DNA of 64,000 nucleotides from the NCBI GenBank assembly GCA_003971905.1, contig RSEE01000045.1, positions 310,001-374,000 of the forward strand, in the 5' to 3' direction. Shown here piece by piece: positions 1,662 to 63,385 of this stretch (position 1 is the stretch's first letter; every line of letters starts with the position of its first letter). The position numbers were made by a program, and so were the translations under genes. The notes under the pieces are model-generated. The model did no database searches. It was not told the origin of the DNA and worked only from the letters and a program-made list of their open reading frames with translations. Source of the DNA: Moniliella sp. 'wahieum'. Taxonomy: Eukaryota.

Positions 1662-3749
1662 TCATGGGGGCAATGGAATGGTGTGAGAGGGAGGACAGGG
1701 GGACATTTGCTTGCGCGGAGGACGGCAGGCAGGCAGGCAGGCAGGCGGGGAGGCGGGCACGGAGCGGGCGAGGCGAGGGAGGCGAAGGGCACAAGGCAGA
1801 GATGGAGGGGGAGGGAGGCAGAAGTGGTGGTGGTGGTGGTGGCGGTGCCGGGGGAGGAGGGAGGCTAAAAGCGCGCCTACCGTTCGTTTGCGTGTTGCGT
1901 TGCCGCGCACGACGCAGGCGGGAGGCAGGGAGCGTTGCTCAGTACCCCCGTGCCGTCTGCTGCGTGCTGCGTGCTGCCGTCTGCCGCTCGTCCAGTGCAG
2001 GAGCAGGACGCATGACGGCGACGCGTGATGAGATGGACGGTGGCCTGGTGGGCGCCCTGGGCCTCCCCCTTACCCGAGCCGGTGACTAGTGAGTAGTGAC
2101 TAGTGACTCGTACCCGTGCCTTGGGCGCAGTGGCTAGGGTGGCCCAGTGCCTAGAACTACCGACCGAGGAGCCCGGGAGCAGGGCAGCAGCCTGTGGGAT
2201 GCGGTGTGGGATCGATGGGAGAGAGCCAGTGCAGTGTGATAGCTACGGAAGCACCTACCAACTCCCCGTCCAAATGAGCAACATTTCATTATTAATCCAG
2301 GCGGCAACAAGGGACCAGTGCCCCAGGCGGAGGGTGAGGCGTGACATGTGTGACAGAGGGGAGCTAGTGGCAAAGCGACGGGTCCTCGTCGAGCGCGTCA
2401 CGCGTCATGCGTCATGCGTCAGACCTTAGAGCTTGGCACGTCCGATTGAACTCTGCACGCAGAGCCCCCCCCGCGCCCTGGTCCTGGCCTGGGGCACGGC
2501 GCTGCTCTGCACCTGCGACATGCACAGTGACCAGGTGGCTTGCGACAGGGCTTGCTGTTGGCCGCAGACACGCCATGCCAGCTCCTGTTCTATGCACAGG
2601 CCACGCAGACCGACTGCTCTCAGACCGAGCTCTCAGACTGAGCACGGGAACCGACTGGCTGTTCCTGCGTGCGCTGAGCACTGCTGAATGGCTGAAGCTT
2701 GAACCAGTCGAACATTGAATGCTGCCCCAGTGCTGCGCCTAACAGGGCCCTCGCTCTTATTCAGCTGGGAATTGCGGCTTTGGGAGGCCGTGGCTACTGG
2801 CGCGTGCATGTGACATGCGACACGTGGTGCATGATACACGATGTGTGACGCGTGATGGTGCAAGTTGGTGGCCAAGCCAGTCACGAATTAGCCGGCGCGC
2901 AGGGTAGGCGCTCATGCATCGCGTTATTTATTAGCGCTTGAGGTACTGGGTAGCACGAGTACTACGTCTGTGTTGCGTATGTGAGTACTCAGGCTCAGAG
3001 TGTACTGAGTAAATAAGTAACGGGGTGAACTGAGTTTTTTTGGCTGGCTCAGTACGTCTCTTGAATAACGACTAAGACGAGTGAGTGACTGAATGCACAC
3101 CTGCGACTTGGAGCTTGGGATGCCGGATGTGTGATATCTGATGCATGATGTCTCCGATCATTGGTGATCATTGCTTGAACCAGCACGTTTATTTGCACCC
3201 TCGGTGCCGCGGGCTAAGTTCTAAATGTTTAGCCTGTGTAGCGTGCAGCCTTGGAGCCTCTTGTAGCTTGTTTATTATTCACGGTTTTAACGCGTAACGC
3301 GCATCGTTTAGCGTTTAGGCATTGCTCTAAGCGGCTAAGCGCTAAACGCATATAGTGCTATCGTGCTAAGCTCAACGCCTCCCGGTTACCGCTTACCGGC
3401 GCTTACCGGTTCCCCGGGAAAATGGACCGCTCTTCAATCTCATTGGTTTCATATTTCAGACCCCGGATCCCAGACCCTACACCCGGCTGGCCCTAAGCTG
3501 TTGCAGCCCATGGAGCGCGGTGCCTGCATTGGATCCCTGCACCTCGCGGCGCCGGAGCCAACTGTCATGCATTGCATCATGGCAACTGTTTACTGTAGCC
3601 TGAGTTATGCAGACGCCATCATGCTTCACTAGCATTTGTCACTTGTCACATGTCGCGTGCCCACTCGTCCCGCCGGCTTTTGCCAGGCCCGGACGGGGGC
3701 GTGAAAAGCAATTAATGTTAGACTGTGATCCTGCAGCTGCTCTTATCCC

Positions 3750-3820
3750 GGCTCGATAGCGTAGTGGTAACGCATCCCTGGCAATAGGCGATGACATGGG
3801 TTCGAATCCCATTCGAGTCT
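3750..3820 (+). tRNA. tRNA-like gene with a defective anticodon arm (possible Cys/Thr-type pseudogene or sequencing error)
   Basis: Acceptor GGCTCGA/TCGAGTC plus T73, D arm GCGT-AGTGGTA-ACGC, T arm ATGGG-TTCGAAT-CCCAT, followed by a T-rich tract. Anticodon stem TCCCT/GGCGA has a mismatch and the loop (GGCAATA) is non-canonical. Confidence 0.65.
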
Positions 3821-4517
3821 CTTCTTTTCCTCACTATTTCCCCCGGGCTGTGCCTTCTCACAATTAACTTGACGCTAACGTGCTGACGGGATTATGAGCC
3901 CCTGTGCCACTCTTCGGCCTGAATATGATATCTGAATCCTGAATAGTGACTAGCACTGGTGACTAGGTGAGTGACTAGTGACTGAACCAGCCAAGCGCCA
4001 AAAGGACATCCTGCATCCAATCCAAACCTGTGGCAACTATCCAACCCATCCTTCGGAGCATGGAATGATCATCAATCGCCGGTCACCGGTCACTGTAGCA
4101 CAGGTACCCCCGGCATCACGAGCTTCACGCATTACCCGTTAAGCTTTACCAAGATGTATACCAGGTGCACCAGTGCTGTACCATCAGGCTGTAGCGGCCA
4201 AGGTGTACCTGGCAATTGGAATAGCCGTGGGGTAGACAGAAACATGGAACGAGAATCGGGCCGGCGAGAGGGCGGGCCGCTGGTTATTGACCGCTCCTTT
4301 CGGTCCTGTTCCGCCTCTGCTCCCCCCCCCCCCCCCCCGCCCCTGTTTGCCCCCCCTGTGGCAGCCCGCCGCCCTTGTGAGAGAAAGCCCGCGCGCATCT
4401 CCTGTGTCGCGTCCTACACCATGCATCATCACCGGTCACCAGAATGAGTTACTGGGGTGGTCGTGGAACGTAGCGTTGAATGATGAAATTGAAACGTTGA
4501 ACGTAACGTTGAATGTC

Positions 4518-4612
4518 TGACAAGAATGGGAATTCGAACCCACGCCCCCAAGTTTGGAGCTACTAGCTGCTACAGCAGGCTAACATATGTATCGACGCTA
4601 GCTTGGACCACT
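4518..4612 (-). pseudogene. Degenerate class II (Leu/Ser-type) tRNA remnant
   Basis: Minus strand reads AGTGGTCCAAG (D loop) ... CTCCAAACTTGGGG (long variable arm) GCGTGGGTTCGAATTCCCATTCTTGTCA (T arm and 3' acceptor resembling tRNA-Leu). The adjacent 5' acceptor strand is missing and replaced by ACTGAGT-type repeats. Confidence 0.55.
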
Positions 4613-6088
4613 GGTACTGAGTATACTGAGTAGTACTGATCGATGATCGATGACGCATGCATCGTACATCATGCATCATGCATCATACATCATGCATCAT
4701 GCATCATGCATCACGCGTCAGGGCGTCAGCACATCTGCATGACAGATCTTAGACTGCAGGGTCCATCAGGGTCTTGCCAGGTAGCACCGGAGGTATCGGG
4801 TTGTGCAAAGGCTGGAGCAGGCTGGAGCGTAGGAGTCGGCTGCGCTGGCGTTTTCTGTTACTGATGCAGATGCAGGTCGGATTCTCAGAATTCAGATGGT
4901 CAGCCGTCAGATGTCGGAGCTCATGCGCTCATGCACGTACCATGCACGTTGCACCGAAGCAACTGATACAGATGATCGATCGATTAATGGTCGATGGTCG
5001 ATGAAGCTTGAAGCTGCCGTAGCAGTGCTGTAGCCTGCAGAAGCTGCTGCAGCTCCGCCGGCCCCATGTCTGGCAAAGCGGGTACCGGACGTGTGACACG
5101 TGACATGTGACTTGGCATGTGATGCAATGCATGATTATCGATGACATATGTGTGACGTGTGATGCATGTGATGTACAATGCCACACGTGACATGTGACGT
5201 GCGGCATGAGTGCAATCAGCATCACATGTCACAGGGACTAGCGACTTCTGACTCTAGTTACTAGTTACTAGTTACTAGTTACTAGCTAATGACTAGCCAC
5301 AGTGACCGGAGTGACTAGTGACTAGTGACTAGTGACAAGCTAGTACGTTGCTAGTGACCTAGTGACCGGAGTAGCTAGTAGTGCTCCAAGCTTGAATTTT
5401 GAAGCCGCAGGCTGTAACCACATTCACAGCCAAGCAACAAAGCCGCCTAGAAAGCGCTGCTAAGCACTGAACTCAGTACGTCCAGTCACTATTCCTAGAG
5501 TGACTTTCGGGGCTTGTGAAAACAAGGGGCAGTCACTAGTCACTAGTCACCGGGTCAGATGGCGGGTGACGTAATGATGGGGTTCATACGCCTGAGCCTC
5601 ACCTCAGATCCCTCAGACGACCCGAATGCGAGCAAAGTAGCAAGGAAGCAAAGGATGCGTTGGGTAGAGAGAAGGAATCATTAATCATTAATCATCACTC
5701 AAGTTAATCAGGATCGGCGAAGAGCGAAGAGTAGCTAGTGATAGTGAGCCCCAGGCCTGATTAGTTCCTGATTAGCGCTTAGCTACTGTGACGCGTGACG
5801 GTGGCAGTATAATTCTGAACGTTGAACGTTGAATGTTAAGGTGAACATTCAGTTGAACGTTGAGCCTCAACGTTGAAGTGAAGGGCGGAATGGGTGGGAG
5901 GGCAGGCGGAGTTTCTGTCACGTGACCGATCTGGACCGGACCGGCCGGCTCAGCGCGCGGAGCGGCTCGGCTGGGCTGCGTTTGGGGGTTGCTGTGCTTT
6001 CGCCCCAACCTGCCCGCGGCCCGCTTCACTCGAGCAGGGCCTGGTGCGCGCATACCCCACCCCCCGCCTCGCCGTCCGCACCCCCAGC

Positions 6089-9000
6089 ATGAGTGCCGCT
6101 TCAACGCTATTTCCACCGTCCTCAACCACCCCACTCGTCGGGCCCACCCCATCGACCCCCACTCGTCTCGCTACCCGCCCTTCTTTTCCCCGCGCTCCCT
6201 CCGGCCGACACCCTCGTCCCCCCCGCTGCCCCTCCTATTGACGCCGAGGCATATGCGCGTGAGACTAGGCCGGCGTGGGGGAAATTGCGACGCCCCCTGC
6301 CGCCCGTGGCTCTGGGCTTGGGGCGGCTGGCACTGGCGTTGTGAGCGAGGAGGAAGACGTGGCGCCACTGGAATCGGTTGCCTTCGGTGTTCTTTGACTT
6401 GGACTATTCCCTGTCCGACCCAAGCTTTGAGCAGGTATTTGAGGTCAGTGCCGCTGTCCCTTTTCCTACGGATGGCACTTCGTCCCTTGCGAGGCCGCCC
6501 AAGAGGCCATTGACAGCATCCCACCCTGCTGGGCGAGAAACTGTCGTTTTATTCGGATGTGATCGAACAGCATCTCGTCACTGCCTTGTCTGAGCGCTCG
6601 GAAGCGATCCTGAATGCCGCCTCTTCTCTGCAAACCCTCACCGAGGCTGGACGCCAATGTGCTTCCGACACGGCTGCGCTCCAGGGCAGCATGCGCGCTT
6701 GGACCAGGACATCACTCACACCGGCACCTCTCTCATCCTACACCAGCACCGCCGCCGCCGACTTCAACTGCTACTGTCCACGCTGGAACGCATCCAAACG
6801 GTTGTTAGCCAATCAGAAACAGTCGAACAGCTTGCTCAGCAACGTAGATGGTTGGACGCGTTGCAGACTGCCAAGCAAGTTCGTCTGTCACTCCAACAGC
6901 CTCTTGTCCTTTCAGCCTCAGCCGGTACAGAGGATCAGCAAGAGGAAAAGCAGCTCAAACTTTCCGACGTTGCCTCCCTGGCAGCATTGTCAACTCGCCT
7001 GGACGGAAGTGCAACACAAACCTCTGAGGCTCTCTGTGGCGAGCTGGAAACGGCATTGAGAGATGGTTCACAAAGAGCATACTGATCTCCTCGTTTCTGA
7101 GGCAGATGACCGCGCGACACCCGGCACTCTTCTCAGTACGATGAGCAATTACGTTCTCTGCGAGCCCGGCGGCCCGCACCTTGCGTTCCTCCATCGCTTT
7201 GGCTGCCGAGCAGTTGGCCGAGGCTACAGCGGAGGCTACCCCTTGCCGGGCACGAGGCCTCCCCTGTCGTCACTGCTTCTCTGATCCAAGGTCCTGATTC
7301 ACTTCCCTCGGGAAGTCGATCCCTTGCCGAAAGGAGATGAAACCCACCTCAAGTTGCAGGAAGAGGGGATGCTGGAGACCATACGGCCCTTGCTTGCTGC
7401 TCTGGCACAAGCCAATTCCCTTGGTTTGGTCCCTCGTACCCTAGAGCAGGCTACCTTTGGGAGCTGTCCAGCAAATTGCCCCGGTTGCTTGGACCGCTGC
7501 CCAGTTCCCAGAGGAAGCGATTCCTGGCCTTGTTCAGCTCGTCAATCCAGAGCCCGGAGTGAATAAACCTCCTGAGGCGGCCATCGCCCACCTTCGCTCT
7601 TGTCTGCCCCCGAGTTTGTGGAGCGAACCCACGTTTACCTGAGCCGTGTTAGACGTGCTTCATGCTTCTGACCAGGCCCTCGTCATCCTTTCGCAATTGC
7701 CCGAAATGATCCAGCTGCCTGCGGACGACGAACGCATAACCCAAGCTCGTATGAATGCTCGCGTGGCAGTTCACACCTCGGCCGCACGTATCTTTTCCGC
7801 GCGGGGTCTTGTGCTGGGATCGCCGCAGCCCGCCCGACCCTAGCCGATCTTGAGGACCCGGCGAACGTCTGGGCTGACCCAGAACTGACCGCTTTCCTTC
7901 CCTCTTTCCAACTGGGATGGGGCTTCATGCTGCGTAGCCGCTTGCCTTCTCACTTGGCAAGCAGTAATAGCGGGTCCAGTAACGGGTCCAGTGGCGGATC
8001 CGATGTGCTGCGCTCCACCCTTCTGCGTTTGGCACGCGAGTTTGTGGGTGTGGTACATGCCCGCAGGTTGTCGGTTGCAGCGGCTGCTGTGGACACGGAG
8101 AAGTGGAGTGCGAAATCGGTGCCAGCCCCAGTTCAAGCACTTGTGGAGATGATGTTGCTTGGGGCAACGGAGGACCCAGCGCAGCTGTTGATGTTGTGTC
8201 AGACTGGTCAAGGATCTATCCAGCAACCGTTGCAAAATGGCAAGACACCACCCAACGCGATCCCAAGACGCTTGAGATCGAGGGCCACCGGTACTTTGTC
8301 GTGGGGGCGACCTTGATTGTGCTCCCCCAGTTGGGGCGGTACTGTCGCCTGGTTGTCAACCTGCCCCTGATCTGTGTCGAAGTTCTTGCCCGTCTCGTCG
8401 AGTTTCTCAAACAATTTAACAGCCGCGTGTGCCAGCTGGTCCTGGCGCAGGTGCGCTCCGCAGTGCCGGTTGACCAATATCAACGCTCGCCATTTGGCGC
8501 TGGCTGAGCAGTCTCTCAGTGCTGTGATGGGCCTACTGCCCTACATTCGCGAGATGGTGCGACGCCACCTGCCAAAGCGGATGAAGCTGATGCTCACTGA
8601 GTTCGATCGTCTGCGACAGGACTACACTGATCATCGGATGGAGATCCAAACTAAACTCGTCTCCATCCTTCAGGAGCGAATTGCTGTTCATTCACGCTCT
8701 CTCCGGGTACGTTACTTCCTTGAGGTGGGTTTGATGTTCTGAATGCTGACCGCTATCTCGATACAGGTTCTGAATTGGGAAAAAGCTGCTGAGGCGGAGC
8801 GTCAGTTCCGACTTGGACTCAAACAAAAAGCGGCCAATACACCTCAAGATGAAGAAACCCCACAGGAGGAAGGGAGCGGGAATGAGAAGGGCGAGGAGGA
8901 ACCTCCTCAGCTGAGTCCCCTAGCTGGACTTCTCAAGGATAGCTCAACGTTATCGACCATCTAAGTCGCTATCTCCCCACTGGTACGCTCGAGTCGATCA

Positions 9001-12870: not shown

Positions 12871-13212
12871 CTCCTCATCGTTTCCCGCGCAGAGGCGGGC
12901 AGAGCGGCAGCCGAAGGGAGGACGTCGGGCGATGGTGGGAGGCGCCGCCGCGCCAACGAAACGACACGACAGCGCCGAGGGGGGGGGGCCGAAAGCAACC
13001 CTAGCGCTTGTCCCAGGCCTAGACTGCCCCCGTGCCCTCGGCCTCAGTCAGGGTGTCCAATCGGGGCGGCGGCAGTCGTGCATCATGCATCACTAGTAAC
13101 TGTTTTTTTCCCGCAAGTTCGCCAGCGCCAGCCGGAAGGCGTCTCGACCGTCGCTGTCGCTGCCGCCGTCGCCGTTGCCACCACCATCGCTCCGGTTGGG
13201 CAGCTCACCTAG

Positions 13213-19145: not shown

Positions 19146-20323
19146 AGAAGTACGGCGCCGGGCGCACGTCGATGCGTTGGCCGGCGGGCGGCGGAGCGGG
19201 GGCGATGGGGGCAATGGGGGTGGTGGGGAGGGAGCAGAGGAGGGGGGCAGGGCGGTTGGTTATCGAGTGACTAGGGACTAGTGACTAGTGATACTGCAGG
19301 CTGAGTGGCTGAGCCCAGCCGGATTGAAATGTTTGTTTATCCTCCGGCCGGACCCTTACCCGCTTTCGCCGTGTCAGCCTCTTGGCTGCTCTGAATCTGG
19401 CTGGCGTCGCGTTAGTAGTGGACAGTACCACGGCCGTCAGCAGCACCGCCGCCCCTGCGCTCGGTATCAGGTCGCTGTAGTGGGGGGCTTCGGCTGCCCC
19501 TCGGCACCGTCTTCACTGGCTCGCTATCGCTCGTTTTCCGCCACCAATCATGTGGTGCGTGCATTGAATGGTGGCGATCATATTACCACACCGTTGCAAA
19601 CAACCCTCTCTCGTCGAAGGCACTGCGGCGCAACAGAGAGAGGTATATATCTCTCTCGCTCTCGAATGTGCACAGGGGTTGTACGTTCTTGTCCCCACGG
19701 CATCGGGCCCGGCTTCCAGCGCTTCCATGGCGCTCAAGCAAGGCTCAACGTCTAACGTATAGTATACAAGGGACAACAATGCCCTACTGGTGGGGGGACT
19801 GAGGAGCGTGTGTATTCTATCAGTGTAAAAAATGAGTACGACTGATACTAATCCCATTGGCCATTACGGCTATCGCCAATAACACCGCTCAGTATAGCTA
19901 CAGTTCTTCGTCGGCAGTCAAGGTTCAGCCTGGGGGATGCCTGCTTTGGATTGGAATCAAGATATGAATACGTTGAGTACTACTCAGACTGAGGTTTCAT
20001 ATACATGTACATGACAAGGACTTTGCTTTTCTTTGCTTTGCTCCAAGTAGTAGAGAGAAGAAAAAGAGAAGAGAAAAGTGTATAATTCAGATACTAGGTA
20101 CACCACAATATATAGCGTGAAAGAAAGAAATATTGTACACAACAAAGGGAGAGGGAGAGGGCGGGGAGGGTTCTTCGTTTCTCCTCGAAACTTGATGGAG
20201 GACGGAGAACCGATACTGCGTAACTGCGTAATGCATATAACAATGCTGAACGACGGGGGTACGACGGACACGATGGGTACGATGGGGAGGATGGGTAGGG
20301 GCTCGAAAGGGAAAGAAAATGGA

Positions 20324-27618: not shown

Positions 27619-28969
27619 AGGGAGAAGAGGAAGGAGGGGAACGAGGGCGCGACGGTAACCAATCCGGAGCGCGCGAGTTGCGTAGCTCTATAGCCAGTTC
27701 CGCTTGCCAACAGCGACATGGCCGATCCAGCCATCACACCAAGTGGTGCCACATGCCACCACACTCCAACACTCTCGTCAATTCTCGTCTCAACCCCCTC
27801 GTCTACCCTCCCGCCTATCCTGTCCGGTCCTGCACGTTTTCCAGCTAATTGATCCAGTACAGGCAGCTTGCTCTTGTTAGCGTCCGACTTCTCTTCCGAC
27901 CTCGTCCTCCAGCCATTCGTCAGTCCAGTCGCGCGAGCCCTCCTCTGGCCGCGTCGATTTCCAGTCTCTGTTGAGGCAGTGTTTGTCCGCCGCTGTCTCC
28001 TCCTCCCGCCTTAAGTCCCAGCGGCTTCAGACACGTTACTACGGCCCAAGCCGGTGCAGACGCAGCCTTGCCACACGTGCAGCCGCCCCACCAAAGGCCT
28101 CTCCTCGTCCCTAGCTCCGCTCGGACACACCAACCAGCCTAAGCCCGAAACTACCGTGAGTCGACCTACCGTCGCCTAAGGGATTGTACCCCAAAAACCC
28201 CAGGGCGGCCCTCTGGCGGCGCCCGCCCGTGACGCCCAAGGTGCCAATAGGCCCCGAGCACTTCAGCACTTTAGTGTGGGCGCAGTGTTTCTTGGTTCCA
28301 ACCTTGAGCTCTATCAATGATATGGTTACAGTATACACACCAGCCACTAGAGCTCCTTTCTTAACCACCCGTCCGGTAACCAGCATGGTTCCGTTACCGT
28401 TGCGTGGGTACGGTACAAAGGTGCCACCCGGTAGTCCCACTACATGCGGTTAATAACATTATCTACACATGATACACGCACATTTCATGGTAGTTTTTTC
28501 TGGGTTGAACGTTGATTAATGATTCGGATGAGAAGGCGTGTTCTCCTACACCGTTGCAGTGCGGCCGACTTTTGTTGTCACCTATATTAACTCATGCCGC
28601 GATGCTATAGGGGGGCCTGGGTTGGCCCACAACTATATACATACGTGTTTCGCGTATGGGCCTTATGGCACAACTTCTATATCAGTTGGGAGAGATCCTG
28701 TGCTCGCCTGTTATCAAACAACCGTGTGCCCCATTCATATATACCTCTTTCCAGTCTGTCTAGCGATGTACCCGATCCATCTGCTTTCCTTTCCAACTCT
28801 CATGTTTCCTGATAGTTGAAGACATTGCAGGCCTACGGTCCCATACAAGGTACCTTGTGACGGTATCCTGGACGAAACATTACAGTTGATGTAAGAGAGA
28901 TGTAGGCATTACCGCCTGTGCAGGCTGTTGGAAATTTGAATGAAGACACGTCGGGCCCCGTCCTCAACC

Positions 28970-29108
28970 TCTAGTACTGCAGGTGTAGTGTGTGACCTAT
29001 AGAAATGTAAGTGTAGTGTAACATCTAGTACTGCAGGTGTAGTGTTAAACGGGGGAGGGGCGAAATATTATGGATAGGAAAGGCTCTCGGTGTTCCGCAG
29101 GTGTAGTG
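28970..29108. repeat. 22-bp direct repeat x2 plus partial copies
   Basis: TCTAGTACTGCAGGTGTAGTGT at 28970-28991 and 29024-29045; partial GTGTAGTGT at 29011 and GCAGGTGTAGTG at 29097-29108. Confidence 0.85.
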
Positions 29109-31764: not shown

Positions 31765-32944
31765 AAGCCTTTTTACTTCTTCGGGTCTCGATCTCGACGC
31801 GTCGGACGTCGGACGTCGGGCGGACGGGTCTTGTTGTTCTGGTGTACTATTTCCTCCCTGTTCCTGATGGCTATACGCGTCCTAATCCGTTGTCCGTTGT
31901 CCGTTCTCCCTTTCTCTTTCCTTTTTTCTCCTTTCTTTTTCTCTCTCTCTGTCGTCCCCTTTACCTCTTCCTTGCTGCGGGTGGCTCAACTGAACGTTCA
32001 ATTGAACGTTGAACCCTCGTGGCGCCTGAGGATGGCAATCGGTTATGTTGTCTGTACATTGGCTCTTTTGAAGGCTTGCTTGCTTGCTTGCTTGCTGTGC
32101 GTTAGGCCATTGGGCCGTCTGTCCGTCTACAGTTGTGTTCCCTGCATCTTTGATGCCTCAGGTTGAGGCCTCAGGGCCATAGCCCCCGTTCCGTGTCATA
32201 CTCAACGTTCGACGTTAACCTCATCTGAGCCCCGAATCTACCCTGCGTCGTGGCGCCTGGGCAGGCTCAGGCGTACAGGGCTCACGCTCACCACCAAGGG
32301 AAACCCAATCACAAGTAGTGGGGTTGTTGGGGAAAATATGCACGACGCAGATGTGCTGAAGATGAAGGGAAAGACTGAACAGACTTAATGAAACAGAGCA
32401 CTGAGGTACTGAGGACGCCAGCAGTCCAAGCAGACTAGTAGAATTAGCCCGGGAAAGTTTCCCACACCCTCTCAGCCACAAAGGAGAGAGAGTACTTCGG
32501 TTTGGTTCAACGTATAGCGTCCAGACAAGCCGGCCGGGTCTTCTTGACGTAAACAGCCTAGGCAAAAGGAAGGCAAGGAGAGCATGTCGTCTGACGCGTC
32601 GCGTTGCTGGTTGCGCGTGACGAGTGACGCGTGACGCATGACGCGTGAAGCTTGAGCTTGAAGACCGCGCGCGCGCCACCTGGTTTTGAACGTTGCAAGG
32701 TACAGGCGTACTTAAGGGGATGGATGGGTGACATTAGCACGCGACGGTGATGCGACGCGTCGCACGCGGGCAGCCGACGCGCTGCGGGGGCGGGCGGGTG
32801 GCGCGCGGGGCGGAAGGCGGGAGGCGGAAGCGCAGACGGCGTATCGGCAGGTCCTGAATCCTGAATGCCCAGCGGACGCGTCCAGTTGGCGCCACCCCGC
32901 CCCGACCCCCACGTCCCCCCCACCACCTGCCTCGACACGCCACC

Positions 32945-43599: not shown

Positions 43600-45301
43600 C
43601 TTGAAGGTTGACTTCCAACTGGGGAATTGAAGCTTGAAGCTTGGAGTATCCTTGCACCAAGGTATCCACCACTGTTTTTCGGCCGCCAGGGAGCATATCA
43701 GCTGGCGCCGTAGGCAAAGTATTAGCACCCTCTCTGTACTCCCCTTTTTGATAGTAGCACAGTCAGGTGGGATTCGAATAGAACATGGTATATGCCTAGT
43801 CCCTCGGCACGAAAGGTACACTCGATGCAGCATAATAAGGGAAACTTGGGACAGGGTAGGGGGTACTTGAAGCAGCGTAAGGAGGCACACTCCCTCCAGA
43901 ACGAGGGGGTGGCGGGGGGTAATACATGCCCTGCATCCAAGGGTAGTAAGGGTAATACGGTGGGGGTAAAAGTATGGTGGAATCCCCTCCATAGGGTTAG
44001 GCCCCTCCTCTGTGGTCCCTGTAGGACGAGATGGCGATGGGTAAATTGGGACCTGAGGCGGGGCAGGGGGATCAAACGTTGCTGAGTAGGAGGGGTGGAT
44101 CTCCTCGGGTCTTCCATCACCTGATGGACTTGCTCGAGTAGCGAACCGACCATGCCAATGCTCCGTGTGAGTGCGGTATTGTCTCGATGGCCATGTCTCC
44201 GTTGACCAGGTGGGTGAAGTGACTCTTGCACCTCCGGCTGCTCAACCGAATTGTGAGATACACCAGCATGTGAGGCATGCATTGCAGGGGACGAATTCCT
44301 CCCTTGTTCAGGTAGAAGACTTTCCTCCCGCTGGGCCTTGAATTGGTCGAGAAGAGCCAGAGCGCGATCTATGGCGTCCAACTCCTCATCCTCTTCCGGG
44401 ACAGGGGATGCGCGATAGGTACCCTTGCCGTACGGGCCGGTACTCAATGCGTCCCCAGGGGTAATTGACGGTGAGGGAGGTGTGGATTTTCTCAATTGGG
44501 GGGACTGCACAAGCGACTCGTCGTTTGGTAGGAGAGTGCCTCCTCCCCCCGACGATACAGAGAGAGCAAGCTGTTGCAGCATTTGCGTCAACGCGCCCAC
44601 TTGAGCCGATTGAGCCTGAAACTGATTAGCCAATCGAGCATGAGATTGTCGCAGCTGATCGTTTTCCTCTTTCAGTTCTTTCATGGCCCCAAGCAAATCA
44701 GTCGCATCAGAGGCATTGTCTTCGTCTGGCCGAGAAGAGGGCCAGGCACCGGGGGGTACTTCCGGTTCCTCTTTCCTCACTCCCGGGAGAAGAAGACCCG
44801 AAGAAGACCAAGCGCCTGAAGGAGCGGTAGGTAGAGATGCGGTGGCCGGAGAGGAGGGTGTCGATTTCGGTGTCCCCGTAGGGGAGTATGGCAAGCGGCG
44901 GCTGTGGATCGTAGTCCGGGACACTTCGGGAGCAGACGAGTCCGAGGGCCGAGGACGAAAGCCTTGGGATCTTCTTCCCTTGCCGCGAGCAGGCGGTTGA
45001 GCAGAGCCGTCTTCCTGGGAGGGAGCTACAAGGCTGCGCACCGCCTCTTGCGCAGAGATGGGTGGGAGATCTGGCTGCCACTGGTTGATAGCCTGGGCAG
45101 GAGCATGGCCCGCTAGCAGATGTGCAACAGCGAGAGAGCCTGTGCGCACTGGTGGAAGAGGCGAATTGGCGCGTGGCGACGAGTTGCGGTCAGACACGCC
45201 CATGCCCGTGGCACACCTGCAAGTCCCGTGACTGGGACTGTGGCCAGCGCAGAAAGCAAGATGGTGGTGAGAAGGAACAAGCCCCTGCCAGAACCGCGCA
45301 T
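43600..45301 (-). CDS. Orphan protein with putative signal peptide, coiled coil and Pro/Tyr-rich tail (frameshifted)
   Basis: MRGSGRGLFLLTTILLSALATVPVTG joins the 493-aa ORF 43722-45203 via one frameshift; coiled coil LKEENDQLRQSHARLANQ; 3' end uncertain. Confidence 0.45.
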
Positions 45302-52207: not shown

Positions 52208-54940
52208 GGCGGACGGAAGGGTGGGTGGTGAGTTGGGTGGTAACGAAAGGCAACAGCTTGCCTCTGGGTGGGGATTTATATACAGGGAATCCTTGCGTGC
52301 TCCCGCCTGCTGATACCGGAATTGGACGAGCCACCGCTGAGCCACTGGCGAACCCACGTAGTCATCTGCGAGCCCCTGCGAAAAACACGGGTTATCTGGA
52401 CGAATGTGACCTTCTAGACCACCCAGGCACACTGTGCAAGATCGAGGCGAGGCCATTTCAGTATGAGACAGCGGGGGGGGCTCTCAGGTGGCGAGTGCGG
52501 TGGGCGACGAACGGTGGACAACGTTGGGTTGCTGGTACTCATCCATCATCACTGTGGGTCTGTAGATAGACGATGACTGTGACAGAGATACGAGTTCGCA
52601 GTAGCATGTGTCGGCGACCTCGGTGGGGAGCTCAGCGCCCCCGTGCCCCCACCCACGGTGCTCACCCACACCGACTCGATCATCGCAACACCACGGCCTG
52701 AGGAGGCAGAGCAGGCCATAGTCCTGTATAGCCTGGCCAACGAGCCCCGAATGACTAATGCCTAGCAATGGCTGAGGAGCCTGAGCGCCTGGGTGACAGC
52801 ACACGTTGGATGCCCAGGAACGCCGTTTCTGGTTCTGTCCCGAAGGACGAAGATGATCCGGCGAAGACACCCAAGACTACGCTAGACCCGCGCCACGGAT
52901 CAATATAGCTATCGCGCAAGCCTCAGGAACATCCCTGGACGAGGCGTGGTTGGTCGACACTGTTATCGTGCGGGGGTGTGTTATCCATATGCTATCGCGC
53001 CGATCACATCCATCACCACCTGTTTGCATGATTGGCTGGGTGACAGTGGCCTGTGACCTCGTCACCCGAGTGGGGCCGTCGCACAGCGCCTGGGGAATGT
53101 GCTGCTCTGCACCATATGGCCCGACGGTTTCTCATCTTTTCATTTCAAACGATTCTTGGCACAGCAACGCTCAGCGCGGTAGTTCGGTTGGAACCGTGAT
53201 GGCTTATCTTCGGGAAAACAATGCCGGCGCGGCTGCCATGCTTCAGCGCCTCGGCCTGCCCGGCTGGGCGGCTGAGCTGAGCTTCGGAGCACGCGCGCCA
53301 CAGCCTGCCGTAGTGCATAGCAGGCCATCGCCTGACGCGCTGAGCCAGCCTAGGTGATGCTCAGGCCTGCTCAGGCTCGACGAGCGCTGAGGTTGAGTCT
53401 GGTTGAGCGCGTCCCAGATCCCACCAGGTCCCAACGCGCAGCGTGCTGGCTCTGGCCATCAATGCATCACATGGCATATGCTCGCAGGACCACCACATGG
53501 CTGTTCGGATGCCACGGCAAGGCCACACCGGTCACGCGGAAAAGGACCGCATGGTTCGACGGTTCGTCCAATTTGTCCGCATTCCCCACCTTTAAGCTTT
53601 GGCGATATATGGACGAGGGGCAGACAGGCTTCTCACTAGCGCAGAGATACAGCAGGACCCACACGCTATTTCTATATTGCCGCAGGCCCGTCGTCACAGA
53701 GATATGCCGAAGCACTGTCACGTTGTCACATGTGGACAACAGACTCATGACCCCGTTTCGGAAATTGTACACGCTGTTACAGGACGGCGGAGTCGAAGTG
53801 GGGGCATGGCAACGGCACTGTTGCAACAAGCTACAGTCTGTTGCAGTTCGCCACATTATCGTCGGCAATCCGCGCAGACGCAGGAAAGCTAGGGGGGAAC
53901 ATACATTCTGAGTATGGAAGGCGTGGACAACGACGGCTTCCAGCACACCGCTCCACCTACAGGGGGGTAAAGAGGCGGGGGCGTAGCGGGGTCGCGAAAA
54001 AGTCGCACATGGATGCAGTTAAGCGGTACCCTCGATGAATTAGTGATCCTCAGGCCTCACGCGAATATACCGCGTACCGGCCAGACCCCCATATGGCCGA
54101 TGTGGTACCAGTCTCGGCGTACACAGCCTGCATGTGCATGTCTGCGGGTCACGCCAGGGTCACGCCGGTCACGCGGTCACGGCAGATCCCGGCAGGCCTC
54201 GGCGCAATTTTCTATGTATACGCACAGTACTGTGGGCAGTACTCAGTGAGTACTCAGGTACACAGTGTGTCCTCAGTATTCCATGCGTTGAATCGATCAC
54301 CGTTCAACGTGATCATCGACCAACTGTAGATACTCTGTGCATACGGGCTTCCCACTATACCTCTCAGAAAGAGGTTTCCGAACCGCAGATAGTGTGGAGG
54401 AGACCGGCTCATACATGCGAGATAACTCGAGTATTAGCATCAGAATTGTGTGTTTGTCAAGGTTCAAACGTTTCGGCATCTCGTTCAATAAAAAGGTGTG
54501 TCTTTTGCCACCCTCTTAGATCAGAGAACCATTATTGTACCCCAGCGTTTTTCTCTTTGTGGTGTATCTCGATATGATGGTTGTGAGTGGCAGTGCTCTG
54601 TCCCTCGCGCCCACAGCCGAGTTGCTGAAGCTGCTAGTTGTGAGCCGCGAGAAGTGATGCCGTTCCAGGTCGAGTTGGACGTTGAACGTTGAATGTTTTG
54701 AGCTCGAGCGCGCTCAGCCTGAGCGCTCCACCGCAGCACCCAACCAGCGCTCAACGCAACGTGCTCAACGTTGATGTTGAGACACTTTGGAATAAGACTT
54801 CCCTCCAAACCAGGACTGATGGTTGTGGTGCATCAAGATGGAGGTTTTTCATTTAACTCAAAAGGCTACCTCTGGTCTAAATCCCTCCTTGGGCGCTTAA
54901 CCGCCGTTCCACACTGTCCACCGTCCCACCGTCCACCGTT

Positions 54941-59360: not shown

Positions 59361-59731
59361 CGTAAGGGCGAGAAAGAAACAAGGAAGAGGAGGATGCAGA
59401 AAGCAGGGGGGGGGGGGGTTGGTGGTGAGAGAAAGTGTGTGTGGTTGGCTCGCGCTGGCTTTATATAGGGGTGGGGCCGATGGGACCCGTTGATCTTGCA
59501 GGGGCACAACCTCGGTTTTGAGATAAGATCATCGATAAGACTTAAGCGCCAGCATGGCTCTCGATCATGCCATCGCCATCTCATTACCTAATCCAACCAC
59601 GTGCGGAATTGTGAGCCAATGCCATCCGCCCATTTTTCTCCTCGCCTGCTCCACTTGCCCTCAAGGTCCTCCAGGTTCAAGGGCTAAAACCTCTCCTCAA
59701 GACTTGGCAAACCTATCCTTCCATTTCTCCT

Positions 59732-61782
59732 ATGGCGCCCCCCCCCAAAATGCTCACGCCAGCCGAGATGGCACGCGATCTGGGCGTTGAAATCGCCACG
59801 GATGAGGTAGCGTATCGCGAAGGCAGCGCCTTTGTCGTATTCCCCACCGAACCTTCTGCTCCCTCCACCACCGGTCGGGGAGTTGCTACTGCAATGGTTG
59901 ATGGGCAAGGACCTGATGCAGCAGCCTTTCTCAATCCCGTTCAAGAATTCAACAGAGATTTGTCCATCTGTGCCATTCGTACCTGGCGCCAAATTGTACA
60001 GGCCGAGTACGACGCGCGCCGACGCCGAACCGCTGCGTCGAAAGAAGGAGGGGCGGTCAAAAGCGGTGACCTAGACCAGCACCCTGCTCCTGCTTTCACC
60101 ATTCTCGAAGCCCTTGCTGCCACGGGCCTACGCAGTATTCGCTATGCCAACGAGTTGGACCATGTTGGTTCCATCCTGGCTAATGATCTCTCTGCGTCAG
60201 CCGTTACGGCGATGCGAAGGAATGTAAAACTCAACTCTCTGTCCTCTAACTCCGCGTCGTCCACCCGTCTAAGCAAGATCACGATCAACGAAGATGACGC
60301 CTTGGCTGTCATGTATTCGCACCGCACCAACGACACGGGAAGGTTTGATGTGGATCTCGATCCATACGGAAGCGCCTCAGTCTTCCTCGATGGCGCCGTC
60401 CAAGCAGTGGCCGACGGGGGACTGCTATGCGTCACTTGCACGGACTTGGCCGTGTTGGCGGGTGGACAGTACCCAGAAAAGTCATTCACTTTGTATGGAG
60501 GAATGAACCTCCGTTGTGAGTATAGCCACGAACTAGCGTTGCGTTTGCTGCTTCACGCGATCACTTCGGCGGCTGCACGGTACGGACGCACCATCCAACC
60601 TGTGCTCTCGCTGGCATTGACTTTTACGTGCGCGTCTTTGTCCGCGTCCACACCTCTGTGGCTGAAACCAAGCACCTGGCTAGCCAGACCGCAATGGGGT
60701 GGACATGCCAGTCTTGCTCCCACACTGCCCACCTTCCATTAGCTCGTGTCCGTGCTGGTCCTCTGCCAAAAATGGGGCAAGCCAAATCAAGTTTACTACC
60801 GCTGGTCGCCCTCCTGTAGGCTCATCGTGCAGCCTATGTGGTGGAAGCTACCTTTTGTCCGGTCCGTTTTGGACTGGTCCACTGCATGATCGGGGGTTCT
60901 GTGAACGTTTGATTAACGTGGTCCAGCAGGACGAACAGCAATTTGGTACAGCGGGGCGGATCATTGGCATGGTGGCCACCGCGGCAGATGAGCTGGGTAC
61001 CGCCCATCAGCCGGATCCGTCCTCTTGGCTTTCACTGGCTAAGCCACCCTCAGTCCCATCTTCGAGGCCAGGGGAGGTGCAGGATCAGTTTGGGTACTTC
61101 AGCACCTCTTCAGAGCGTACCTTATTTTACTTCACGTCCAGTTTGGTGGCCCGTTGCTTCCATGGTACATCCGCACCGTTGGAGATATTTGTTCATGCCC
61201 TTCTGCATGCCGGGTATGAAGTGAGTCGATCCCATTGCTGCCGCGGTTCACTCAAAACAAATGCTCCTCATCACGATGTGCTGGACATTTACCGTTACTG
61301 GTTACGCCGAGAGCAGGACGGTTGAACCTGGCCTTATCGCAAGTCTCTCTTTTGGAACAGGACACTAAGCAGAGCCCAACCTCACTGGCCGCAACCAATG
61401 AGCCGCCACCCTCGCTTGTCGGACGAAAGATCGAGATGAGTCGGCGTACCAAAGCCCAGAACGAAAAGGCACCGGCTCATATCTTATCCGATACCCCAAT
61501 CCAAAAAGACTGGAACCTCTCCCCTCACCCCCAGTCGGATCGGATCCTCCTTCCCCAACTCCCGGAAGTGAGGTACCGGCGTCCACTTTGGATGCTATGA
61601 CCGGGGGCAGTGTGACCGCCACAGGTGAACACTTCCACCGCAAGGTGGGCCCCAAGAAGACGAGGATTGTGCGATACCAAGAAAACCCGTCGCCCAATTG
61701 GGGGCCAGCGACAGCCGCCAAGGTCGGGCGGCGACAGCGGTCCGATCGGCTTGGCTCGAGTGACACCGTGCCCAACCCATGA
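59732..61782 (+). CDS. TRM1: tRNA (guanine-26-N2)-dimethyltransferase Trm1 (frameshifted)
   Basis: AFLNPVQEFNRDLSI, ILEALAATGLRSIRYANE, DLDPYGS, GGLLCVTCTD, HELALRLLL, GPFWTGPLHD, YEVSRSHC...LKTNAP, VRYQENPSPNWGP. Confidence 0.95.
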
Positions 61783-63313: not shown

Positions 63314-63385
63314 GGGCGGATAGCTCAGGGGTAGAGCGCTTGCTTAGCATGCATGAGGTCCGGGGTTCAATTCCCTGTTCGTCCA
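63314..63385 (+). tRNA. tRNA-Ala (AGC)
   Basis: 72-nt cloverleaf GGGCGGA...TTAGCAT...GGTTCAATTCC...TTCGTCCA, G3:U70 alanine identity pair, followed by TTCTTTT terminator. Confidence 0.95.

Follow-up and report, generated by a model that had tools for sequence, protein, structure and literature searches.

The window analysed here is a 64-kb stretch (64,000 nucleotides) of contig RSEE01000045.1 from the fungus Moniliella sp. 'wahieum' (assembly GCA_003971905.1, positions 310,001 to 374,000 of the forward strand). Its genes include a Fungal_trans domain, a Zn2Cys6 cluster, OPT, Vps54, Utp6, SMC and TRM1, and an Rfam scan of the window finds two tRNAs and nothing else. The window also contains many period-7 arrays detected by Tandem Repeats Finder, most of which are rotations of a 4-bp palindrome plus TGA, TCA, TTA or TAA, and these heptamers built on the triplet TNA are the subject of this study. 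In our view, the most likely origin of these phased repeats in this smut-related fungus is scarring of TNA sites, one scar for each round in which a cut-and-paste transposon entered such a site and left it again. All scar counts below come from this one 64-kb window, and the pattern was defined post hoc, after inspection of the sequence.

The basic unit is a 4-bp palindrome between two copies of TNA. Pairs of palindromes separated by three bases occur 265 times in the window, compared with 223 +/- 13 in dinucleotide shuffles, and the excess lies in TNA linkers (51 versus 10.8 expected; TGA 24, TCA 18, TTA 7). When the same TNA is required on both sides of a 4-bp palindrome, 67 units are found versus 2.0 +/- 1.4 in shuffles, and palindromes of 2, 6 or 8 bp flanked in the same way show no excess over shuffles in the window. 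Among 4-mers flanked by TNA with the same N, perfect palindromes are the most enriched (67 versus 2.2), followed by those with one broken pair (36 versus 14.7) and two broken pairs (26 versus 22). The 4-mers are therefore slowly decaying palindromes and not arbitrary 7-bp repeats. In total there are 80 units in 64 loci, of which 52 are single-unit loci and 12 are arrays of at least two units. The two TNA copies carry the same N in 67 of the 80 units and take the complementary TGA..TCA form in 8, and N is G or C in 56 of the 67 same-N units, in both orientations (TGA 34, TCA 22). As a control we used 80 eukaryotic loci fetched via relatives of the TRM1 protein (720,369 bp in all), 42 of which are at least 5 kb long. 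These 42 loci contain 33 units versus ~33 expected, that is, no excess. Open frames of 150 aa or more make up 67% of the window, yet 51 of its 64 TNA-palindrome-TNA loci are located outside them; this location fits insertions that would shift a reading frame.

The heptamers belong to different families, defined by their palindromes, and the families can be joined without loss of phase. The initial annotation had proposed such junctions from six quoted strings, and all six are present in the sequence (Table 1). At an offset of 7, unlike units are found seven times versus 0.28 expected, and the nine other offsets within 4-13 account for only eight combined, which bears out the claim that the palindrome changes while the 7-bp phase and the TNA linker are kept. 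Two different palindromes joined by TNA are likewise above chance (24 versus 9.95 +/- 3.1). Thirteen palindromes are in use (ACGT 12, CTAG 9, TCGA 8, CGCG 7, TGCA 7, AGCT 6, CATG 5, and others). Therefore, the inserted bases are neither a fixed sequence nor a pair of element termini. The array at 4665-4720, which together with its left neighbours was the starting point of the analysis, contains a TACA variant every 21 bp (Tandem Repeats Finder: period 21, 3.1 copies). This recurrence indicates duplication of three units at a time, by which the array has partly grown.

The palindromes are related to the unique sequence next to them. On 52 of 128 sides, the dinucleotide flanking the outer TNA matches the palindrome half next to it, versus 8.9 expected (p ~7e-27); for the two bases farther out, 29 of 128 sides match. 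Matches of the proximal bases only outnumber those of the distal bases only (40 versus 17, p = 0.003). At least one side matches its flank in 44 of the 64 loci, and right- and left-templated forms are equally common (26 and 26 loci; 34 and 35 occurrences). In the control loci, flank matches are found in only 3 of 40. These results agree with the proposal that the flanking dinucleotide predicts the identity of the arm, which is visible on both sides at 28504-28524, and with the earlier view that the palindrome is no insertion of a fixed sequence, as thirteen palindromes are used and their flanks predict them. The focal locus itself breaks this flank rule for TCGA and CGCG.

Put differently, a unit is a short direct repeat combined with a short inverted copy. 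The repeat TNAXY-nn-TNAXY, counted on both strands, occurs 96 times versus 5.2 expected, and in 69 of the 96 the two gap bases are Y'X', the inverted copy of XY (0.24 expected). This main class is found 69 times in the 64-kb window and 3 times in the 80 control loci. TNAXY repeats whose gaps of 0, 1 or 3 nt follow the same logic number 8, 9 and 1, respectively. Templating from the TN end of TNA was not found as a class of its own in the window: by inspection, all 12 scored hits appear to come from TGCA-TCA arrays read on the opposite strand, in which both templating rules coincide. Searching without regard to the triplet, we find 28 period-7 identity runs of exactly 5 nt in which the 2-nt gap is an inverted copy of one end ('5+2' structure), versus 4.5 expected. 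Several of the triplets other than TNA in these runs are near variants (TGG, TGT, TGC, TTG). The cases without TNA may reflect a loose target preference, or units that were copied after mutation.

A second group of repeats retains two intact heptamers. TNA-centred 7-mers of the form abTNAXY are duplicated with a gap of 1-3 nt in 11 cases. We call a gap P-type when its bases are the inverted complement of the adjacent 7-mer end, and 8 of the 11 gaps, at 7 loci, are of this type: 4/4 one-base, 3/4 two-base and 1/3 three-base gaps. Shuffled sequences contain ~0.1 P-type duplications compared with these 8, and P-type gaps make up just 3 of 47 in the 80 control loci. One type dominates in the window (69 occurrences), alongside variants with one to three P-type bases in which both 7-mers are intact (8 cases, 7 loci). 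The multiple GGTCACG copies at 54147-54181 look like one site that was scarred repeatedly.

Table 1 Positions of heptamer units, arrays, duplicated 7-mers and tRNA features in the window.
Position	Feature	Remarks
1900-5900	Gene-poor gap around tRNA-Leu	30 of the 64 TNA-palindrome-TNA loci
2079-2106	CCGG-TGA-CTAG-TGA-GTAG-TGA-CTAG-TGA, then CT	
3107-3124, 3260-3271, 3990-4001, 4007-4018, 19854-19865, 45167-45178, 54068-54079	'5+2' structure around TGG, ATG, TGT, CAA, TCC, ATT and TAC	
3750-3821	tRNA-Leu(CAA)	Amid the densest scar cluster (30 of 64 loci)
4615-4632	TACTGAGTA x2, 9-bp tandem copy centred on TGA (ACTGAGT-at-ACTGAGT)	2-nt gap not P-type
4633-4653	GTAC-TGA-TCGA-TGA-TCGA-TGA	Mixed-family array in register; TGA orientation
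4665-4720	TACA-TCA-(TGCA-TCA)2-TACA-TCA-(TGCA-TCA)3-CGCG-TCA	Eight units; TCA orientation; final unit is a family switch to CGCG
4919-4933	GCTCATG-c-GCTCATG	1 P-type base
4998-5015	TCGA-TGA-AGCT-TGA-AGCT	In-register family switch; new family repeated in right flank
5158-5173	TGTGATG-ca-TGTGATG	2 P-type bases
5254-5335	(CTAG-TTA)4 and (TGA-CTAG)3-TGA arrays	
5353-5367	AGTGACC-t-AGTGACC	1 P-type base
5602-5617	CCTCAGA-tc-CCTCAGA	2 P-type bases, from left copy
13079-13099	(TGCA-TCA)2-CTAG-TAA, then CT	Family switch; flank CT is half of CTAG; N changes from C to A at the junction
28504-28524	GT-TGA-ACGT-TGA-TTAA-TGA-TT	Clearest case: left GT seeds ACGT, right TT seeds TTAA
32400-32414	ACTGAGG-t-ACTGAGG	1 P-type base
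32614-32655	Degenerate CGCG-TGA array, then AGCT-TGA	Family switch; 32639-32655 is TGA-CGCG-TGA-AGCT-TGA
53359-53375	GCTCAGG-cct-GCTCAGG	3 P-type bases
54147-54181	Four GGTCACG copies with gaps ccag, cc and c	cc and c P-type
63314-63385	tRNA-Ala(AGC)	

From the observed patterns and their statistics, we infer a transposon, hairpins and the opening of these hairpins at +2. We lean, by a little, towards the reading that the heptamers may be excision footprints of a hairpin-forming, hAT-like cut-and-paste transposon with a 7-bp target-site duplication (TSD) of the form nnTNAnn. Such an element would insert at a 7-bp TNA-centred target, abTNAXY, and duplicate it. At excision both flanks would be closed into hairpins. 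A host nuclease would then cut each hairpin 2 nt 3' of its tip, which would leave the self-complementary 4-nt overhangs XYY'X' and b'a'ab. One overhang would be kept and filled in and the other trimmed, resulting in abTNAXY-Y'X'-TNAXY or its mirror image abTNA-b'a'-abTNAXY, with a net gain of 7 bp and a scar in which identical TNAs bracket a 4-bp palindrome. Each of these TNAs could then serve as a fresh target. Re-insertion and excision inside the scar would add units of the same family; at the edge of the scar, the unique flank dinucleotide would seed a new palindrome in the same 7-bp phase, producing the family switch at the 'hinge'. Arrays would also lengthen by ordinary slippage of several units.

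This footprint model would account for six observations: the 7-bp period, an N that is identical on both sides, the flank rule, the equal numbers of left- and right-templated forms, the lack of a TN-end class and the variants with intact 7-mers. The 7-bp length of the putative TSD is suggested by the scars themselves, which show duplicated 7-mers, a net gain of 7 and no TN-end class. The absence of an independent TN-end-templated class is predicted by a 7-bp TSD and not by a 5-bp TSD; a 5-bp TSD with 2 P nucleotides gives the same main product, but it predicts neither the duplicated 7-mers nor the missing class, and we rejected it. We also rejected a tandem copy of a target that was already palindromic, as both flanks match in merely 8 of 64 loci. 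The initial annotation had favoured a fold-back or hairpin origin with TNA as the recognised or cut site. Its idea of hairpins and of templating by the flank is largely borne out, and hairpin chemistry is the simplest source of the two inverted nucleotides. We rejected a simple fold-back at TNA, because TNA is copied directly (67 of 80 units with the same N, 8 complementary) and a fold-back should give the inverted form; complementary N is seen at 8 loci, and the 67 same-N units are at the others. TNA would be the duplicated centre rather than the cut site, with the putative hairpin tips lying 2 nt outside it, and a step of target-site duplication is needed beyond the original hairpin idea.

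Several observations weigh against the footprint model. Neither a convincing pair of terminal inverted repeats (TIRs) with a TNA-type duplication of 3, 5 or 7 bp on its outer sides nor a transposase Pfam domain, including hAT, was found in the window, the latter among its open frames (234 stop-to-stop frames of at least 110 aa, of which 150 + 75 were scanned as such and the other 9 as frames including the stop codon). The scars are very dense for footprints, with 64 loci in 64 kb and 30 within 4 kb. They are also more uniform than experimental hAT footprints, in which 28 types were found in 128 events (PMC5873905). Simple retention of both TSDs is not enriched (26 versus 22), and neither is the predicted scar class with p = 1 and d = 1 (2 versus 0.2, one of them inside an array). 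In 20 of the 64 loci neither flank matches, and TCGA and CGCG at the focal locus are among them; ~13 of the 28 '5+2' cases surround a triplet other than TNA. Finally, the strand of the focal array folds no better than shuffles (z = -0.48), and we rejected a long hairpin structure of this array on that ground. In the inverted-repeat and TIR scans of the window, the arrays matched themselves, one 12/12 pair fell within the Vps54 gene, and all other hits were at chance level. One 22-nt inverted repeat (7332-7353 and 8719-8740) is 86% complementary, contains the 12/12 core AACCCACCTCAA and adjoins TGA at both arms; it spans ~1.4 kb including Vps54-domain frames, and is probably a chance or gene-internal feature rather than an element.

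The failure to find an element in the window, the density and uniformity of the scars, and the other contrary points make an enzyme without an element a live rival, albeit a fairly improbable one in our judgement. A domesticated hairpin-forming transposase, or another TNA-directed nuclease, would repeatedly mark non-coding TNA sites in the absence of a mobile element; in the nuclease version, staggered breaks would be repaired with a 7-bp duplication and 2 inverted bases. Scars that are very dense, locally clustered and highly stereotyped are what such an enzyme might leave, and neither an element nor a transposase is seen in the 64 kb. A fungal precedent exists in Kat1 of Kluyveromyces lactis, a domesticated hAT transposase that makes hairpin-capped breaks (PMC4763223). 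However, a break without an insertion does not by itself duplicate a 7-bp target, whereas insertion and excision yield both the duplication and the hairpins by known chemistry. No candidate gene for the enzyme was identified in the window, and a 64-kb window free of elements says little about the whole genome. Taken more broadly, it is unlikely, but well within reach, that the scars were written by an endogenous, element-free (domesticated) hairpin-forming enzyme targeting nnTNAnn in open non-coding DNA of this lineage, or that they correspond to the 10-bp repeats of Ustilago maydis, which await an explanation (see below).

Replication slippage alone, in which hairpin-prone microsatellites expand and contract and the palindromes are incidental, would suit the 12 of 64 loci that are arrays of at least two units and the 21-bp higher-order period of the focal array, in which three units are copied together; as read from the sequence, a palindrome-TNA-palindrome could also fold into a stem of 4 bp that is closed by a loop of 3 nt. 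Slippage cannot create the 52 single-unit loci, each with 5 nt repeated at period 7 and a 2-nt inverted copy, and it does not explain why the units are restricted to TNA or why families switch in register. Same-N perfect palindromes are in excess (67 versus 2.2) while non-palindromic 4-mers are at chance (26 versus 22), and the focal strand shows no tendency to fold beyond that of shuffles, as described above. We consider slippage contradicted as the origin of the units, for which it is very unlikely to suffice, and valid as a secondary mode of growth. The triplet TNA (or TWA) is the 3-bp TSD of Harbinger-type elements. A 3-bp direct repeat around a 4-bp palindrome is what two inverted termini would give, and the heptamers could be footprints carrying the terminal bases of a transposon itself, with a TNA (PIF/Harbinger-like) or TA-like (Tc1/mariner-like) TSD and 2 + 2 nt of inverted ends left behind. 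We find this hardly credible, and the flank test contradicts it: thirteen palindromes would need as many different termini, unique flanks go with particular palindromes (52 of 128 sides versus 8.9), which is unexpected for bases derived from an element, the direct repeat extends past TNA to 5-7 nt, and N is G or C, not A or T, in 56 of 67 units. Selection of the units as cis-elements, either arrays of A-NNNN-T palindromic protein-binding sites or spacers that are rich in stop codons or terminator-like, also strikes us as highly improbable. In its favour, palindromes of 6 bp with the form A....T are the only one of four classes to be enriched (269 versus 173.5), the non-coding units cluster near a tRNA gene, and TGA and TAA are stop codons. 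Yet a binding-site model predicts no preference for the same N, and 56 same versus 8 complementary are found among G/C pairs; under this model the palindrome should also be independent of its unique flanks, contrary to the flank test, and the thirteen cores and the free use of both orientations (TGA 34, TCA 22) speak against it.

Among known systems, the footprints of hairpin-forming transposons are the closest to the scars. In hAT, Transib, MULE and RAG, flank hairpins are opened by host enzymes and end joining leaves footprints (PMC5499845). Footprints of Ac/Ds in Candida albicans consist of deletions plus P-nucleotide palindromes; two types predominate, and the length of the palindrome depends on the host (PMC5873905). 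Such footprints (Ac/Ds, MULE and Transib footprints and RAG coding joints) resemble the window scars in having a duplicated target around a short palindromic addition templated by the flank, and variants with 1-3 P nucleotides, where the host sets the distance of opening from the tip. They differ in that no element is seen in the window and one scar type is dominant, and in that the window scars are dense enough for re-targeting to give phased arrays with family switches, which the available parts of those papers do not describe. Hairpin excision footprints are known as such; the putative ones in the window would stand out by a density and uniformity sufficient for the formation of arrays. In rust fungi, hAT families that duplicate 7 bp are reported (PMC12730594), and the hAT element TcBuster has the target consensus nnnTAnnn (PMC3499496), which is the even-length analogue of nnTNAnn. 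The likeness to such 7-bp-TSD hAT elements of basidiomycetes covers the chemistry of the superfamily, the 7-bp duplication and a symmetric target with a central T..A (the latter from TcBuster). On the other hand, rusts belong to a different subphylum, and no hAT domain was found in the window. The duplications made by Transib are 5 bp long (PMC1131882), a poorer fit to the 7-mer data. Heptanucleotide microsatellites share the head-to-tail 7-bp units and the multi-unit copy steps; the units in the window, however, arise at TNA from a direct copy of 5-7 nt joined to an inverted copy of 2 nt, and not by copying of a 7-mer that was already there.

The genome of Ustilago maydis, which is poor in elements, contains small intergenic 10-bp repeats that were interpreted as footprints (PMC4081816). 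This fungus belongs to the Ustilaginomycotina, as does the source of the window, and its repeats have the same length as TNA-palindrome-TNA (10 bp) and lie between genes; the likeness is one of description, and a search of the supplements of that paper (11 of 15 files) gave no hit. PMC8120014 offered nothing of relevance. In the open-access literature searched, we found no description of TNA-centred palindromic heptamers, flank templating or in-phase family switches, and a literature search with six 10-base strings from the window gave primer-like matches only.

If the footprint model is true, the non-coding DNA of this fungus is an unusually dense record of past transposition, in which about one in ten non-coding TNA sites carries a readable scar (a rough estimate, not a computed value). 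The target (nnTNAnn), the chemistry (flank hairpins) and the opening of hairpins by the host (2 nt from the tip) would then be revealed by sequence alone, and a mutational process rather than slippage or selection would create microsatellite families that are joined in phase. For the element-free footprints of the smut lineage, the model thereby provides a specific explanation that can be put to the test across whole genomes. Should the scars be the same as the 10-bp repeats of U. maydis, a 7-bp target, opening at +2 and one kept overhang would explain a long-noted oddity of element-poor smut genomes.

The clustering of the loci at tRNA-Leu might be due to local hopping, or to targeting of chromatin that is open or associated with RNA polymerase III. 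The stretch 4520-4612, which immediately adjoins the focal array, contains a motif resembling a tRNA T-arm, GGTTCGAATTCCC (minus strand). No tRNA is called at 4520-4612 by ARAGORN or by Rfam, and Rfam is also empty at 4400-4700, so the motif may belong to a decayed or intron-bearing tRNA gene. TRM1, the N2,N2-dimethylguanosine tRNA methyltransferase, is encoded across two frames (59615-60742 and 60684-61322), which suggests an intron. The TRM1 frame is nearest to Ustilaginomycotina proteins, with 58% identity to the best relative and 52% to Tilletiaria anomala; as the best relative is only 58% identical, the protein collection contains no close sequenced relative of this lineage. Two further features are unrelated to the heptamers, a 22-nt poly-C tract at 4322-4343 and a repeat with a 26-bp period at 28966-29045 (3 copies, 72% matches).

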